Shown: positions 3,226 to 40,225, counted from the stretch's first letter. The stretch is DNA of 64,000 bases from Candidatus Caccopulliclostridium gallistercoris (GCA_018713725.1 DVOJ01000007.1:2486-66485), one strand, 5' to 3'. Notes: generated by a model not told the origin, from the sequence alone. Made by a program: numbers and translations.

Positions 3226-3230
3226 TATTA

Positions 3231-3297
3231 GGGGACACCAATTTTCAGAAAAAATGCCGAGCTTGTAGCTCGGTCATTTTTTAAAATTGGTTTCCCC
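3231..3297 (+). terminator. long near-perfect hairpin containing a bidirectional intrinsic terminator downstream of polA
   Basis: The outer arms ggggacaccaatttt / aaaattggtttcccc enclose aaaaaatgccgagc-ttgta-gctcggtcatttttt, which is an A-run, a GC stem and a T-run. Confidence 0.55.
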
Positions 3298-3317
3298 TAA
3301 TATACCCCTTCCTTGTC

Positions 3318-3380
3318 GTCAAAGCACGCTACGCTAGACAAGTTGCAAACAGCAACTTGTCTAGTGGAGCGTGCTTTGAC
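3318..3380. repeat. 63-nt GC-rich two-tier hairpin (member of the structured intergenic element family)
   Basis: gtcaaagcacgct pairs with agcgtgctttgac (13 bp) and ctagacaagttgc pairs with gcaacttgtctag (13 bp). A 3x3 internal loop separates the two tiers and the apical loop is aaaca. Confidence 0.6.
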
Positions 3381-6500: not shown

Positions 6501-6992
6501 GGCAAAACAAGTGTAATTCCAGAAAATGTTACTAGGCTTACTGGTGGCTGTTATGGTGGCGATTATTTAGCTTATGATAGAGTAACAAAAACAATAGTAA
6601 TACCAGACGGCGTTAGTTCTATTCCAGCATATTTTGTTAATTATAGCTATGTTGAAACAATAGAAATAGGTGCAAATGTTACGTCTATTATATATAACGC
6701 ATTTAGCTCTTGTCCAAGCATAGAAAATGTGTATATCCGCGGAGCGCACAGGTCGTTAAGCGTAAGTACAAGCAGTGATATAAATTATTATTACGAAGCA
6801 AATAACTACATAGAATCTTATAAAACCTATTGCAAATTAGACCAAGGTTACGCGCATTGGGTAGGCACGAACGTATTAGAATTTAACGGCGAAACATACA
6901 ATTACAAACAAGAAGAGCCAACCTTCCCAGGCAATTTCTGGTATTATGATGAAGTGACTGGCAAAATAAAGTTATGGGGTCAAAACGCATAA
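3597..6992 (+). CDS. membrane-anchored multidomain protein: XRE-type HTH, TM helix, trypsin-like serine protease, Listeria-Bacteroides (Flg_new) repeats, BspA-type LRR
   Basis: 1131 aa with an AAGGAG SD. HTH: LTQNELGKLLNVSFQAVSKWEKN. TM helix: LIIIICAALAAILAVVGIILAI. S1 catalytic triad contexts: TNYHVV, RDIAVL, GNSGGVLVN. Repeated GYTFVRW...LYAEFTP-type modules. C-terminal FYGCTNLEKLELP LRR_5-like repeats. Confidence 0.85.
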   Translation: MSLGEKIKLLRKSKNLTQNELGKLLNVSFQAVSKWEKNVSQPDIETIKKICEIFEINVDNFLKDNFTLKPNKEVVHSKVEKSALYNEVNTSNEKALVLSRNQLIIIICAALAAILAVVGIILAITIPNSRRGSVYDSVNPSVVCVSTTAGNNLLFGSGFFISNTQVVTNYHVVAGIESGKVKLSDGTELNITGIAGYDRERDIAVLIVDTEPLKDSEEFKGGVKTVRLGNSDNIRVGDRVYAIGYPQSYFIGNNVSTLTEGIISKTSYMHEGYSYIQTTADITNGNSGGVLVNESGEVIGITTAQLSVAGEDYMNMSIPINSLKNLDKSHNYTLEEFVSYNAVYTIRFYVDNYVDEVRSVHYNETVESYTPTKTGYTFVRWNDELGTEFNFNTPINKNTNLYAEFTPNEYTITLFLDGGSLEEGTENSVKVTYNAPFTLPTPTKEGFEFIRWTLNGSELPAVYNIADNSIATAVWREEPKTIIYILNDGTNNAENPTSFRNDESLTITLKPASKDYYKFGGWYLDSSFNTQVTEINTFGEDDITLYAKFTPITYTIDYELNDGSVIHTFKRRYTIEDTFTLPNNLEKAHYDFLGWICLQDETREPKLDYTVENRAGNLTFEAIFEPTKYKATFDLDGGTLVEGEELFETFTYFDKFDLPKLEKEHYVHIGYTINGFYMPNGDPYTTVPNWGTDATFKAVYEKFNYEINYYDLSGNLFKTDYYTFDQFPVTLENFAPEDAFELKDDKNYSSAELTSEISSITEIGNHSVYKNFYATAVVEYTINSYNKNVTVTGTNFKGTVYIPAEIGDFPVVSISFGGNTTIETLYVPNTVATYGYRCFKNSTTLKQVLMYESDLENTREGTIGEQAFYGCTNLEKLELPDNVTIIDGNAFSLTSKLTMNIPSSLERIESYAFSNSGFNPTENFPETLTYIGRGAFNNCPILENELFTIDNCVVINNILVLGRVNQEDGKTSVIPENVTRLTGGCYGGDYLAYDRVTKTIVIPDGVSSIPAYFVNYSYVETIEIGANVTSIIYNAFSSCPSIENVYIRGAHRSLSVSTSSDINYYYEANNYIESYKTYCKLDQGYAHWVGTNVLEFNGETYNYKQEEPTFPGNFWYYDEVTGKIKLWGQNA

Positions 6993-6996
6993 AAGC

Positions 6997-7234
6997 GGCG
7001 CCTAGCTGCGTTTCTAAAAAACGGGGTCAGACAGTTACGTACGTAGGTACGCGCCTGCCTGACCCCATTTTTGAGCCTTGCTATGCTTGCTTTTCTGCGT
7101 TTTGACTATTTCTACTTAATTTTATGTAAGAAAATAAACCTTGTCGAGCCTTGCTCCACTCGTTTTTCTGCGTTTATTTCTACTTAACTTTAATAGCAAG
7201 AAAAATATTGGCGCCTAGCTGCGTTTCTAAAAAA
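6997..7234. repeat. composite intergenic repeat block bounded by 25-bp perfect direct repeats
   Basis: ggcgcctagctgcgtttctaaaaaa occurs at 6997-7021 and again at 7210-7234. Between the copies are the 7023-7066 hairpin and two roughly 73-nt tandem units that start with gagccttgct (7073 and 7146). Confidence 0.8.
7023..7066 (+). repeat. hairpin with a conserved 28-nt core (copy 1)
   Basis: Arms ggggtcag / ctgacccc flank acagttacgtacgtaggtacgcgcctgc. The same core occurs at 40009-40036 with different but complementary arms. Confidence 0.8.
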
Positions 7235-7337
7235 ATATATCTTTTTATTGAAAGTCAAGAAACAAGAATATTATTATAAGTGATTAATTATATTTTTCAA
7301 TTTTACAAACTCCTTTAAATTTTCATATATATTCACT

Positions 7338-17444: not shown

Positions 17445-17900
17445 CTAGGGAAATTATCGCGCTTTTAGGCGTGATTTTTTTTATAAAAAAATCATCGCCA
17501 TTTACGCGCGTAATTTCCCTAATACGCGCCAGACGAAAACTCCAGCCTTACAGGCTTGGGAGTTTTGCGCGTACTCTCGTGCGAAGTGAACGCTACGAAG
17601 ATAATAAAAGTATGGTTATTGTTGCGCTTTTAGGCGCAATTTTTTTATAAAAAATTGTCGCCGCTTGCGCGCACGTTTTTCCTTTTACCGCCCAAACGCA
17701 AGCTCCAGCTTGAAGTGCTCCCAAAAATTTTTAATTTTTGGGAAAAGGAAAGAACGCGGAGCGACAAGCATAGTTACGTTAGTAACTTGCCTAGCGTAGC
17801 GATTCTTGACGCCTTGGGCGGTACTCTCGTGCGAAGAAAATTCTTCGAAGAAAATAAGATAGTTATGCTGCGCTTTTAGGCGCAATTTTTTTTATTCTTA
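17445..17900 (+). repeat. degenerate tandem array of structured units downstream of tRNA-Trp
   Basis: Three copies of the hairpin plus T-run (tcgcgcttttaggcgtga, ttgcgcttttaggcgcaa, ctgcgcttttaggcgcaa) lie near 17459, 17623 and 17869. There are two copies of gtactctcgtgcgaag (17575 and 17822). Shared ataaaaaa-tcgcc-cgcgc and ctccagc modules are also present. Confidence 0.75.
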
Positions 17901-20869: not shown

Positions 20870-20896
20870 ACAAGAGCTAAACGCTCTTGTTTTTTA
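20870..20896 (+). terminator. intrinsic terminator
   Basis: acaagagc-taaac-gctcttgt followed by ttttt. Confidence 0.65.
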
Positions 20897-37503: not shown

Positions 37504-37758
37504 ATGAAAGAAAAAAAGGAAATTATCGAATCTTACAAGCAGTCTGAAAACGATACAGGTTCTGTAAACGTTCAAGTGGCTCTTCTTACTGAAAGAATTA
37601 ATCACTTAACAGAACACTTAAAGGCTAACCCAAACGATAACCACTCAAGACGCGGCCTTTTACAGCTTGTTGGTAGAAGAAAAGGGCTTTTAAAATATCT
37701 TGAAAAGAAAGATATTGAAGCTTACCGTGAACTTAAAAAATCTTTAAATATAAGATAA
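37504..37758 (+). CDS. rpsO: 30S ribosomal protein S15
   Basis: The segment [35 protein letters not shown] supports the call. The ATG at 37504 follows an AAAGGAGA SD. Confidence 0.93.
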
Positions 37759-37769
37759 ATATGCATTAT

Positions 37770-37805
37770 GCCTAAAAGCAGGAGTTGACTGTTTTTAGGC
37801 GTTTT
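37770..37805 (+). terminator. rpsO terminator / pnp leader hairpin
   Basis: gcctaaaagc ... gtttttaggc is a 10-bp stem with one mismatch, followed by gtttt. It contains a 19-mer that is also present at 1-19. Confidence 0.55.
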
Positions 37806-37882
37806 ACAGTAAACGCATAGAGTTATGCATGCTTAACTTTCGCGGTTTCAAGGCAGGGTGATAAATTAAATTAGGAGATTTT

Positions 37883-39967
37883 ATGGAAAATCATATTTTT
37901 GAAACAGAAATTGGCGGTAAAAAGGTTACCGTTGAAACGGGCAGGTACTGCGAGCAAGCAGACGGCACCTGCTGGGTAAAATGCGGTGAAACCGTAATTA
38001 TGGTAAACGTTACCATGGCAGAGCAGCCACGTCCGGGCATAGATTTTTTCCCACTCGGCGTAGATTTTGAAGAAAAAATGTACTCCGTTGGAAAAATCCC
38101 AGGCGGCTTTAAAAAGAGAGAAGGTAGACCTTCCGACAAGGCTATTTTAACGTCAAGACTTATAGACAGACCACTTCGTCCACTTTTCCCAAAGGGCTTT
38201 TTTAACGATGTTAGCGTTGTAGCAACAGCACTTTCAATCGACCCAGACGTAGCACCTGAGCCACTTGCAATGCTTGGTTCTAGTTTTGCGCTAACTATTT
38301 CCGGCATACCATTTGCTGGTCCAACAGGCTCTGTGAACGTAGCTCTTATAGACGGCAAATATATAGCCAACCCAAATAATGAAGAGCGCGAAAAGAGCAG
38401 AATGAGCTTAACCGTAAGCGGAACAAGAGATGCCGTTTTAATGGTTGAAGCTGGCGCCAAGGAAGTTACGGAAGAAGAAATGCTCGGCGGAATTATGTTT
38501 GCGCACGACATTATTAAAAAGCTTGTAGACTTCCAATTAAAAGCAAAGGAAGAAATTGGCAAAGCTCCAAAAGAAGTGGAGTATTATGTAATAGACAAGG
38601 AACTAGAAGACGCAGTTCGTGCTTATGCTAGTGAAAAATTAGATTACGCCTTAGACACTTTTGATAGGCAAGAACGTCAGACACGTCAAGACGAAGTGGA
38701 TAAAGACGTAAAAGAACATTTTGCTGAAACCTTCCCAGAAAAAGAAAGGGAAATCGGCGATGTGCTCTATAAGATGACAAAGGAAAAGGTTAGAGCAAAA
38801 ATCTTAAATAAGGGTATACGTCCAGACGGAAGAAAATTAACGGATATTCGTCCTATTTGGTGCGATGCGGGCGTGCTTCCACGCGTTCACGGCACTGGCG
38901 TGTTCACACGTGGGCAAACACAAGTTTTAACAACATTAACACTTGGCACAATAAGTGATGCTCAAAAACTTGAAGGCTTAGACGACGAAGAAGTAAAGCG
39001 CTACGTACACCACTACAATATGCCTCCATATTCAACAGGAGAAGCTCGCCAATTAAAGAGCCCAGGAAGAAGAGAGATAGGCCACGGTGCACTTGCAGAA
39101 AGGGCGTTAGAGCCAGTTATTCCAAGTGAAGAAGAGTTCCCATACGCATTAAGGCTTGTAAGTGAAGTTTTAAGCTCAAACGGCTCATCATCTATGGCAA
39201 GCGTGTGCGGTTCAACACTTGCACTTATGGACGGCGGCGTTCAAATTAAAGCCCCAGTTGCAGGAATTGCAATGGGTTTAATCAAGGACGACGAAAGCGG
39301 TAAAGTAGCAGTTCTATCCGATATCCAAGGCTTAGAAGATTTCCTTGGCGATATGGACTTTAAGGTTGCAGGTACAACAAAGGGTATTACAGCTATTCAA
39401 ATGGATATAAAAATTAAGGGCATAGACGAAAATATTTTAAGAACAGCCCTAGAACAAGCTCGTCAAGGTAGGCTCTACATTCTAGACAAGATGCTTGCCG
39501 TAATAGACAAGCCACGTGCTGAAATATCTAAGTACGCACCAAAAATTATAACCTTTACAATTAATCCGGATAAGATTAAAGATGTTATTGGTTCCGGCGG
39601 AAAGACAATTAACAATATTATTGAAGAAACCGGCGTAAAGATTGATATAGAAGACGATGGACAAGTGTTCATAGCAACACCAGATTCCGACATGGCAGAA
39701 AAAGCTAAACAAATAATTTTAAATATAGCTGAAGACCTAGAAGTTGGAAAAATCTACTCAGGTAAAGTTGCAAGAATAATGAACTTCGGTGCTTTTGTGG
39801 ACATAGCTCCGGGAAAGGAAGGCATGATTCACATCAGCAAACTTTCTTCTAAACGTGTAGAAAAAGTAGAAGACGTTGTAAACATTGGCGACGAAGTAGA
39901 AGTTGAAGTTATTAAAATTGATAATAAGGGTAGAGTAGACTTAAAACTTGTTGCTGTTAGTAAATAA
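37883..39967 (+). CDS. pnp: polynucleotide phosphorylase
   Basis: 694 aa with two RNase PH domains, a KH domain and a C-terminal S1 domain (GKVARIMNFGAFVDI). Confidence 0.96.
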   Translation: MENHIFETEIGGKKVTVETGRYCEQADGTCWVKCGETVIMVNVTMAEQPRPGIDFFPLGVDFEEKMYSVGKIPGGFKKREGRPSDKAILTSRLIDRPLRPLFPKGFFNDVSVVATALSIDPDVAPEPLAMLGSSFALTISGIPFAGPTGSVNVALIDGKYIANPNNEEREKSRMSLTVSGTRDAVLMVEAGAKEVTEEEMLGGIMFAHDIIKKLVDFQLKAKEEIGKAPKEVEYYVIDKELEDAVRAYASEKLDYALDTFDRQERQTRQDEVDKDVKEHFAETFPEKEREIGDVLYKMTKEKVRAKILNKGIRPDGRKLTDIRPIWCDAGVLPRVHGTGVFTRGQTQVLTTLTLGTISDAQKLEGLDDEEVKRYVHHYNMPPYSTGEARQLKSPGRREIGHGALAERALEPVIPSEEEFPYALRLVSEVLSSNGSSSMASVCGSTLALMDGGVQIKAPVAGIAMGLIKDDESGKVAVLSDIQGLEDFLGDMDFKVAGTTKGITAIQMDIKIKGIDENILRTALEQARQGRLYILDKMLAVIDKPRAEISKYAPKIITFTINPDKIKDVIGSGGKTINNIIEETGVKIDIEDDGQVFIATPDSDMAEKAKQIILNIAEDLEVGKIYSGKVARIMNFGAFVDIAPGKEGMIHISKLSSKRVEKVEDVVNIGDEVEVEVIKIDNKGRVDLKLVAVSK

Positions 39968-40000
39968 AATAAACGGCGCATAGCGGCGTTACTGCCAAAC

Positions 40001-40044
40001 GAGACTAGACAGTTACGTACGTAGGTACGCGCCTGCCTAGTCTC
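40001..40044 (+). repeat. hairpin with a conserved 28-nt core (copy 2)
   Basis: Arms gagactag / ctagtctc flank the identical core acagttacgtacgtaggtacgcgcctgc. As in copy 1, it is followed by the attt-gagccttgct motif. Confidence 0.8.
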
Positions 40045-40225
40045 ATTTGTCGAGCCTTGCTCTGCTTGTTTATTTTTCTTACTAACCATTCTTTAAAATT
40101 TTCAAATAAAAGTAAAAAATACACTCTTGAATTTTCAAGAGTGTTGTTTTTTGCTGTAAACTAATTTTTTAAAATGCTTAACTAAAAACTGCAAATTTAA
40201 TTGCAGTGCTAGTGTTTTTAAATAG

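Follow-up and report, generated by a model that had tools for sequence, protein, structure and literature searches.

A Family of Nested Hairpin Repeats at Gene 3' Ends in Candidatus Caccopulliclostridium gallistercoris, Probably a Terminator-Targeting Mobile Element

The two 44-nt hairpins located at 7023-7066 and 40001-40044 of the window (the whole stretch of 64,000 nucleotides analyzed here, C17:2486-66485) are the central stems of a nested hairpin of approximately 140 nt, which is one of a family of repeats at gene ends. The family has spread to approximately 39 gene 3' ends, and its target is an intrinsic terminator or the region of the stop codon. We consider it likely that the family is a non-autonomous mobile DNA element, a miniature asymmetric nested palindrome that inserts at terminators. 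The host genome is 1.12 Mb in size, with 35% G+C and 18 contigs, and the relatives identified through pnp were uncultured gut Clostridia labeled Christensenellales or Christensenella sp. UBA1242.

A sequence-only reading of the window had described the two sites as an identical 28-nt core held between substituted but complementary arms. The 28-mer ACAGTTACGTACGTAGGTACGCGCCTGC was found with the same letters at 7031-7058 and 40009-40036; these were its two matches in the window at three mismatches or fewer, and no match arose in 100 shuffles. The arms (ggggtcag/ctgacccc versus gagactag/ctagtctc) are unlike at four of eight positions and each pair is fully complementary. The hairpins begin 31 and 34 nt after the stop codons at 6992 (the 1131-aa surface protein) and 39967 (pnp), respectively, and the downstream motif that had been said to be common to both copies was confirmed on the sequence. 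The hairpin pair is real; what had to be revised was its extent, because the 44-nt hairpins form only the center of a longer element, with a likeness of approximately 100-140 nt that runs from about 25 nt before the stop codon to about 45 nt past the hairpin. A diverged relative proposed at 17771-17798 was rejected as a member of the family, since it was missed by nhmmer and by the covariance model, with filters off, even at E<=10. The layers of the two copies were as follows.

6970-7108, + strand: copy A, full element behind the 1131-aa surface-protein gene; covariance model R1, 133 bits (+) and 52 bits (-)
6978-6997 / 7089-7106, + strand: outer stem S1 of copy A
6995-7010 / 7072-7089, + strand: S2 of copy A
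7023-7066, + strand: central hairpin of copy A, arms and core, with 8-bp arms, a CAG/CTG step and an inner 5-bp hairpin (cgtac-gtag-gtacg)
39948-40087, + strand: copy B, full element behind pnp; covariance model R1, 136 bits (+) and 50 bits (-)
39956-39974 / 40068-40086, + strand: S1 of copy B; the left arm holds the last pnp codons and the stop
40001-40044, + strand: central hairpin of copy B, from sequence, folding and covariation
40051-40078, + strand: local hairpin of the right part of copy B, CGAGCCTTGCTCTGCTTG, followed by a T-run; terminator-like
40121-40154, + strand: ordinary intrinsic terminator 3' of copy B; canonical part given as 40121-40144

For both window copies, the R1 score was 133-136 bits on the + strand versus 50-52 bits on the - strand, indicating that the element is oriented. 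Folded as single-stranded DNA, copy A gave z = -6.3 (+) and -8.9 (-). Because an ordinary intrinsic terminator stands downstream of it, copy B lies in the pnp 3' UTR; no canonical terminator was predicted after copy A.

In the own genome, iterated nhmmer with the two strands merged yielded 39 loci, and covariance model R1 yielded 34 matches. A full copy comprises five nested helices: S1, the outermost (16-20 bp); S2; S3, which is short and has a conserved asymmetric bubble (gtttactg versus cgagcc); the 8-bp arms with an A/T leader; and the innermost 5-bp hairpin. The predicted RNA folding energies of the copies were -45 to -78 kcal/mol, and as single-stranded DNA both strands folded far better than shuffles (z -5.7 to -8.9). 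The outer stem occurs in two types, namely type I, tCAGRCTGyyyAAAAAC with the right tail TTAATTTGTCTACAAGCTG, and type II, which is gtcaaaacgcaTAAaagcg-like; copies A and B both belong to type II. Type I copies end in 5'-CAGRCTG … CTG-3' and their S1 arms (CAGRCTGyyyAAAAAC / GTTTTTGAACAGYCTG) form terminal inverted repeats, a trait that was scored on type I copies. A long form of approximately 250 nt (about 14 copies) has its right arm swapped for a module of approximately 105 nt with two extra hairpins. Several contig ends carry near-identical long forms, on which the assembly breaks. At approximately 140-260 nt, without an ORF and with 39 loci in 1.12 Mb, the element is small, non-coding and multi-copy. 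The Rfam scan that had been suggested for the hairpins matched no family: with gathering thresholds the whole window returned only a tRNA, and scanning five element loci and 6900-7300 by E-value produced one chance match, to a plant miRNA hairpin (25.7 bits, with a gathering score of 140). Further traces of the family in the window are listed below.

1-81, + strand: right part of a type I copy lying across the window start (C17:2391-2566)
3318-3380, strand unassigned: candidate diverged relative 3' of polA, a long hairpin whose outer stem gtcaaagcacgc is S1-like and whose arms read ctagacaagtt; weak covariance-model matches, E = 0.24-0.5
7141-7187, + strand: right-half fragment (S2R, S1R, tail) of a second truncated tandem copy; weak covariance-model match at 7113-7181
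7210-7234, + strand: 25-nt exact repeat of 6997-7021, the left part of the element
20871-20889, + strand: empty target, a single intact terminator hairpin caagagctaaacgctcttg followed by a T-tail; the G004 orthologue is filled
37734-37849, - strand: decayed reverse-oriented copy in the rpsO-pnp spacer; R1 20.8 bits, E = 0.006; allele series L152-L157

Pairing was kept by compensatory change in every layer of the element. In the alignment of 18 full copies (A2), double compensatory changes were detected at 32 of the 46 pairs, and 92.6% of the cells were paired versus 74.9% after shuffling; with the partner slid by 1-3 columns, the paired fraction was 31-45%. The larger alignment (A3; 68 copies from at least 10 genomes, fitted to the covariance-model structure) showed double changes at 43 of 46 pairs, with 93.1% of the cells paired versus 67.0% in shuffles and 31-46% with the partner slid by the same 1-3 columns. 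It held 793 cells with two-sided changes, compared with 235 in shuffles, and 0 of 500 shuffles was as high as the observed value. The arm covariation noted by the sequence-only reading thus persists in both alignments. Its contrast with a conserved loop does not, because the inner hairpin varies among copies while remaining paired (cgtac/gtacg, tgaac/gttca, tttag/ctaaa, tgtac/gtaca); the conserved loop is a trait of one subfamily, the core covaries too, and the arms are one of five covarying helices. The arms do lie inside a longer repeat, but the copies of this repeat are not identical, and the covariation holds. The core matched neither a known IS end or MITE nor an Rfam family, and the earlier impression that this was not an ordinary terminator was borne out.

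The pairing was of the Watson-Crick type. With two invariant U·G columns set aside, the mismatches in A2 were G·T/T·G in 10 cells versus A·C/C·A in 12, and in A3 they were 61 versus 61. If selection acted on an RNA fold, covarying pairs should contain many more G·U than A·C mismatches, and neither alignment had such an excess; strictly Watson-Crick pairing therefore points to a constraint at the DNA level rather than on RNA, or to copying from arm to arm. At orthologous positions of the own genome (G000) and G004, 41 concerted double changes and 16 single-sided changes were counted. Several of these "orthologous" sites hold different subfamilies, implying that much of the double-change signal reflects replacement or re-insertion at a hot spot. 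The clean case was provided by the pnp copies of the two genomes, which differ by one A-T to G-C arm exchange together with uncompensated decay of S1. Many orthologous copies of G000 and G004 have been retained with their pairing intact, which speaks against a mobile reading and could mean selection in situ.

Type I copies bear the signature of insertion at terminators. They are flanked on both sides by direct repeats that differ per locus and correspond to the whole terminator hairpin of the upstream gene. In the own genome, these hairpin duplications measured 27, 22, 23, and 17-19 bp; a systematic scan of G004 and G032 revealed the same pattern at 18-28 bp, and duplications of 16 and 21 bp were found on two metagenome contigs. 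The total came to 12 independent type I insertions with a duplication of 16-28 bp. The hairpin duplication is shown for this type only, the two window copies being of type II, and this restriction counts against the mobile reading. The order of parts was fixed: an A-tract, the hairpin with 0-4 T, CAGRCTG … TCTAYARNCTG, the same hairpin, and a T-tail. The duplication ended 1-3 nt or less from the palindrome borders in 11 of the 12 cases, and in the best-preserved subfamily (5'-CAGRCTG…TCTAYARNCTG-3') the element follows immediately on the 3' side of the terminator stem. Of the two hairpin copies, only the downstream one retains a T-tail, the upstream one having lost it, so that the element joins the 3' UTR. 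One clean filled/empty pair supports the hairpin duplication: the own genome carries the hairpin once at 20871-20889, and in G004 (site L108) the 19-bp hairpin caagagcgaaaagctcttg is present on each side of a type I element. Target duplication, found for type I, and empty sites in relatives are both expected of MITEs, although the duplication is atypical in being so long and palindromic.

The family is patchy among relatives. R1 matches were obtained in 18 of 61 related genomes, with counts of 32, 18, 3, 0, 0, and 0 inside the genus. Among other genera of the host family, one had 23 copies with scores as high as those of the own genome, one had 13, and most had none; single matches occurred in three other families of the order. 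The element was present at none of 80 pnp loci of relatives in the species collection, and looking up the exact pnp protein gave no match. The site of copy B is filled in G004 and empty in G001, G002, G003, G005, and G006, where a short ordinary terminator lies within 5-7 nt of the pnp end. The site of copy A is empty in G004 and G006, in which the surface protein ends in ...KLW* and is followed by the terminator agcRcattaag-aatttt-cttaRtgtgct; the own genome has lost this native stop and terminator, and its ORF continues for four extra codons (GQNA) to a TAA inside S1. These empty orthologous sites in congeners indicate that both window copies are insertions. Since G004 shares copy B and has an empty copy A site, copy B is older than the split of G000 and G004 and copy A younger. 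We also considered that S1 might be the native gene end copied by fold-back synthesis; this was rejected for copy A on account of the native end ...KLW* in G004 and G006, and near-identical S1 sequences behind unrelated genes, in differing frames, count against it as well. Three explanations had been offered for the hairpins from the sequence alone, of which a miniature mobile element targeting hairpins came closest, given the empty sites in congeners, the type I copies that adjoin and duplicate terminators, and the one copy found in a terminator loop. Insertion polymorphism, a patchy distribution and G·U counts no higher than those of A·C disfavor an RNA- or protein-binding 3'-UTR element.

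At most loci, the model start was 0-20 nt from a stop codon, and in several copies the stop codon is the TAA within the conserved part of S1. After tandem copies had been merged, the element had the orientation of the upstream gene at 24 of 27 assessable independent loci (p = 2.5e-5). The spacer C16:64326-65282 contains two + copies behind a + gene and one - copy behind a - gene; because these opposite copies each follow their own gene, orientation tracks the gene, and control by the replication strand was rejected. The upstream genes include housekeeping genes in conserved synteny, such as pnp, rpsL, and rpsO. Strict co-orientation with the upstream gene would not be expected from recognition of a symmetric palindrome, which is a point against mobility, and an RNA role or selection could explain it.

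Comparison of strains whose pnp is 98.7% identical revealed several states of the rpsO terminator. It is intact (accacc-tttta-tggtggt) in L153, L154, and L156; in L152 and G004, a reverse-oriented copy lies between the stem arms, that is, in the loop, without duplication; L155 has a partly deleted copy; and the own genome keeps the decayed remnant at 37734-37849. Behind pnp, strain contig L153 carries two complete tandem copies, whereas in L152 and G004 (the G004-like species) the second tandem copy is cut to the left part joined to the right outer arm, its central hairpin having been deleted between short GTTT repeats. On the evidence of these strain contigs, the 21-25-nt direct repeats after type II copies, which had been considered as target duplications or rolling-circle redundancy, were reassigned to a tandem copy with a deleted central hairpin, and by analogy 7210-7234 is taken for what is left of a tandem copy after loss of the central hairpin. 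Recent strain-level mutations were single and uncorrected.

The genomes were searched for an enzyme or an autonomous partner. PF01797 (Y1/RAYT) gave 0 matches in G000, G002, G004, and G017 and matched only in genomes without the family; PF00078 (reverse transcriptase, RVT_1) gave none in G000, G002, G004, and G032; and PF01609 (IS4/IS1634-type DDE) gave none in 17 genomes, while named control genomes gave matches in each of these searches. Retro-mobility by a genome-encoded enzyme was dropped, as PF00078 was absent from the genomes searched. Self-BLAST of the own genome yielded no multi-copy IS-like sequence, only paralogous secreted surface proteins, and no larger element with the same ends was found there, every left end having a right end within 300 nt. 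Phage and plasmid collections and viral contigs contained no match to the element. A metagenome scan with the right-end 18-mer returned 58 matches, close to the number estimated to arise by chance, of which only two were real copies, both small; a parent IS with the same ends was therefore found in none of the phages, plasmids, viral contigs, or metagenome matches. All genomes are MAGs, from which mobile genes may be lost in binning and in which assemblies break at repeats. We infer mobility only from comparative footprints.

A mechanism consistent with these footprints can be outlined. A structure-specific enzyme would act on a terminator palindrome that is folded or extruded, cutting the strands at its two bases, the element would be joined at the cuts, and repair of the staggered gaps would duplicate the palindrome; equivalently, resolution of a cruciform would leave the whole palindrome on each end. 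Staggered cuts at the palindrome bases are proposed because the length of the duplication tracks that of the palindrome. The long hairpin of the element itself, which has to form when the DNA is single-stranded or extruded, is probably what the enzyme requires of its substrate, with the conserved asymmetric bubbles giving polarity. If only lineages that keep Watson-Crick pairing go on multiplying, covariation without tolerance of G·T would result in every stem. Once inserted, copies would degenerate as they are duplicated in tandem, lose the central hairpin or acquire point mutations. Whatever the 3'-end hairpin and the terminator-like right part do to the host mRNA is likely incidental. A further account, held tentatively and rather unlikely as it stands, is a hitherto unrecognized mode of DNA transposition directed by structure and not by sequence, in which the enzyme, possibly a host protein or one encoded on a mobile element missing from the bins, recognizes folded or extruded palindromes, cuts at both bases or enters the loop, and each captured target could add to the outside of the element. 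A palindrome repeated directly is at the same time repeated in inverted orientation, and insertion into a loop adds an outer stem, so the nested covarying layers would be relics of past insertions. S2L and S2R each form a local hairpin preceded by an A-run and followed by a T-run, and as direct repeats they are approximately 69% alike.

That the repeat instead functions as RNA in the 3' UTR, with selection maintaining the RNA structure and duplication spreading it secondarily, seems to us quite unlikely. Such an element could serve as a barrier to 3' exonucleases (a stabilizer of mRNA), as a terminator, in ribosome stalling like a stop-proximal REP, or as a protein-binding site, and the fact that 24 of 27 loci carry it in the sense direction, with a start 0-20 nt behind the stop, is in keeping with these roles, as are the position of copy B between the pnp stop and a canonical terminator, the terminator-like right part, the two invariant U·G positions, which hold for the + strand only, and the pairing kept at sites common to G000 and G004. 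However, structural RNAs tolerate G·U, which was no commoner here than A·C (10/12 and 61/61), and the - strand as single-stranded DNA folds at least as well as the + strand. The family is also absent from most congeners and from most genera of the host family, where the same genes have plain terminators; within species it is present, absent or decayed; one copy, located in a terminator loop, runs antisense to its gene; and no Rfam family matched.

The covariation might also be a mutational by-product, one arm being corrected to the other by template switching (quasipalindrome correction) or by repair of extruded hairpins, in which case the repeats could still be mobile or merely duplicated. 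This would agree with Watson-Crick-only pairing at equal rates of G·T and A·C, with the 41 double versus 16 single-sided changes between G000 and G004, with the clean arm exchange between the pnp copies, and with the central-hairpin deletions that mark these palindromes as hot spots of replication error. We nevertheless regard it as unlikely, because copying should erase asymmetric features, yet almost all of the 68 copies retain them (the bubbles gtttactg/cgagcc of S3 and ccc/ttca of type I S1, and a C/T versus T/C position); moreover, several of the "orthologous" pairs differ in subfamily, which makes many double changes replacement or re-insertion, and the recent strain-level mutations remained uncorrected. 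Folded recombination sites of the attC kind, at which a tyrosine recombinase would move or shuffle the upstream genes as cassettes, share imperfect palindromes of variable sequence and kept structure, conserved unpaired bases, a position at or over the stop of the upstream ORF in its orientation, and a similar size range (approximately 60-140 nt). This explanation is very improbable: upstream stand housekeeping genes whose synteny is conserved (pnp, rpsL, rpsO), not cassette arrays, the element comes and goes while the gene stays, the ends lack R''/R' boxes (RYYYAAC/GTTRRRY) and read AAAAC(G)…(C)GTTTT(T)G in alignments A2 and A3, and target duplications are not a trait of attC recombination.

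If the mobile reading is right, the family would be a clean case of an element homing to intrinsic terminators with duplication of the whole hairpin, a footprint that no mechanistic model covers. It would also offer a lead to a new enzyme, since the hosts are of approximately 1 Mb, nearly IS-free and carry none of the transposase families tested, so that phylogenetic profiling should be able to point to it. The family rewrites the 3' ends of approximately 4% of genes, including C-termini (e.g., that of the surface protein), terminators, and 3' UTRs, and it breaks MAG assemblies. Its strong covariation would pass for structured RNA unless G·U is compared with A·C.

Among known systems, bacterial MITEs (Correia, RUP, bcr1, QMITE; PMC10969869) are alike in being shorter than 300 bp, multi-copy, intergenic and non-coding, with long hairpins, short terminal inverted ends (here CAG…CTG), target duplications, presence/absence polymorphism, and tandem or nested clusters. 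They differ in their fixed duplication of 2-10 bp, compared with 16-28 bp here, which amounts to the whole terminator palindrome; here, moreover, the internal stems covary strongly among copies, and neither a parent IS with matching ends nor a transposase was found in the host genomes. REP/REPIN sequences (RAYT, Y1) are likewise extragenic palindromes with long hairpins and compensatory pairing, located in 3' UTRs or between convergent genes, and movement as a folded single strand has been proposed for them, which we count as a likeness. A REPIN is a doublet of 20-35-nt REPs, in contrast to the single asymmetric unit of 140 nt with hairpin-length duplications described here; compensatory conservation of the hairpin was found, but a RAYT gene was not (G000, G002, G004, G017). 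The pneumococcal BOX element (PMC3049150) is also an interspersed repeat of a Firmicute, modular and with optional inner modules, comparable to the module of approximately 105 nt. SPRITE is terminator-like, lies near CDS 3' ends, has no known transposase and is limited to a few related species (Croucher et al. 2011, PMC3049150), and the present family resembles it in all four respects. BOX and SPRITE show no sequence kinship with our family, whose orientation bias is much stronger, and an empty site and target duplication, both seen here, were not established for SPRITE (PMC3049150).

Group IIC introns and REP-targeting IS (IS1397/ISKpn1 and the IS110 family, e.g., ISPpu10) also use a DNA stem-loop, a terminator or REP, as the target and insert beside it or in its loop. 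Unlike the present family, they are autonomous, 1-2 kb long, encode a reverse transcriptase or transposase, and do not duplicate the hairpin; a group IIC intron consists of a ribozyme and a reverse-transcriptase ORF, whereas the element is 140-260 nt long and RVT_1 was absent from G000, G002, G004, and G032. A precedent for duplications of tens of bp is provided by IS1634/IS1549, whose long variable direct repeats (8-514 bp) are still unexplained (PMC2266710), but no IS4/IS1634-type DDE was found in the 17 genomes. Integron attC sites form ORF-attC arrays, in contrast to the single copies or short tandems dispersed here behind housekeeping genes. In CRISPR adaptation by Cas1-Cas2, likewise a precedent for duplications of this length, the whole repeat, which is often palindromic, is cut at both borders and duplicated; here, the duplicated unit is whichever terminator palindrome stands at the site. 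A palindrome-defined duplication of terminators was not found described in the MITE review (PMC10969869) or by full-text search. The family has no Y1 gene that would make it RAYT-REPIN, no parent IS that would make it an IS-derived MITE, and neither the arrays nor the core boxes of attC; it is most likely a terminator-targeting, MITE/REPIN-like mobile element, so far undescribed.

The window carries a decayed copy of the nested-hairpin element in reverse orientation:

window 37734-37849, minus strand, decayed reverse-oriented element copy in the rpsO-pnp spacer

In near-identical strains (loci L152 to L157), three states of this site were seen. The site was either empty, with the rpsO terminator intact, or held a full element copy within the terminator loop, or held an element copy that was partly deleted. 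A length difference was also found beside the site of copy A, the copy behind the surface-protein gene. At locus L174 of the congener G004, about 600 nt separate the terminator of the surface-protein gene from the gene that follows, and this stretch, which by eye contains a putative antisense ORF, is absent from our genome and from the congener G006. The length difference at L174 is an indel adjoining the copy A site.

Two long palindromes were located downstream of polA:

window 3226-3302, long palindrome 1
window 3318-3380, long palindrome 2

The first holds a terminator (CGAGC-ttgta-GCTCG plus a T-run) that resembles the hairpin of S2R, the right part of the second helix of the element. The second has an outer stem like S1, that of the element (gtcaaagcacgc/gcgtgctttgac), and arms reading ctagacaagtt. 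Covariance-model matches at both were weak (E = 0.03-0.5), and each palindrome is probably a diverged relative of the element family.

In the long form of the element, the right arm is replaced by an extra module of about 105 nt (gcgtcaaaagcYgcgctttaatgaattttgc…ccccaaaaa…tttttgggg). Copies outside the window include the following, among others:

C9:5681-5945, long-form copy
C13:50565-50833, long-form copy
C8:17700-17960, long-form copy

Because near-identical long-form copies occupy the ends of contigs C1, C2, C6, C8, C9, C13, and C17, the assembly was broken at these copies. The sole long repeats of the genome are paralogous genes for secreted proteins with signal peptides (DNA identity, 77-88%), all outside the window:

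C7:142590-144125, secreted-protein paralogue
C14:20289-21797, secreted-protein paralogue
C18:22504-24015, secreted-protein paralogue
C12:43740-44705, secreted-protein paralogue
C16:12233-14314, secreted-protein paralogue
C11:1758-3347, secreted-protein paralogue

Element copies adjoin several of these paralogues.

Columns 49 and 106 in the alignment of 18 full copies are opposed in the stem (e.g., window 40017 and the 40049 region) and read C/T, T/C, G/C, T/A, or A/T. They form a correlated pyrimidine-pyrimidine mismatch whose sides are exchanged between copies, and the same swap distinguishes the pnp copies of our genome and G004.

S2L and S2R, the left and right parts of the second helix (e.g., window 6995-7010 and 7072-7089), each form a local hairpin and, compared by eye as direct repeats, are about 69% alike; an A-run precedes S2L and a T-run follows S2R. 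The inner left end of the element, ACTGCCAAAC, is similar to the end of the type I subfamily, CAGACTGCCCAAAAAC, and its inner right end, ATTTGTC, is similar to the type I tail. The layers of the element may be fossil target duplications left by nested insertions.
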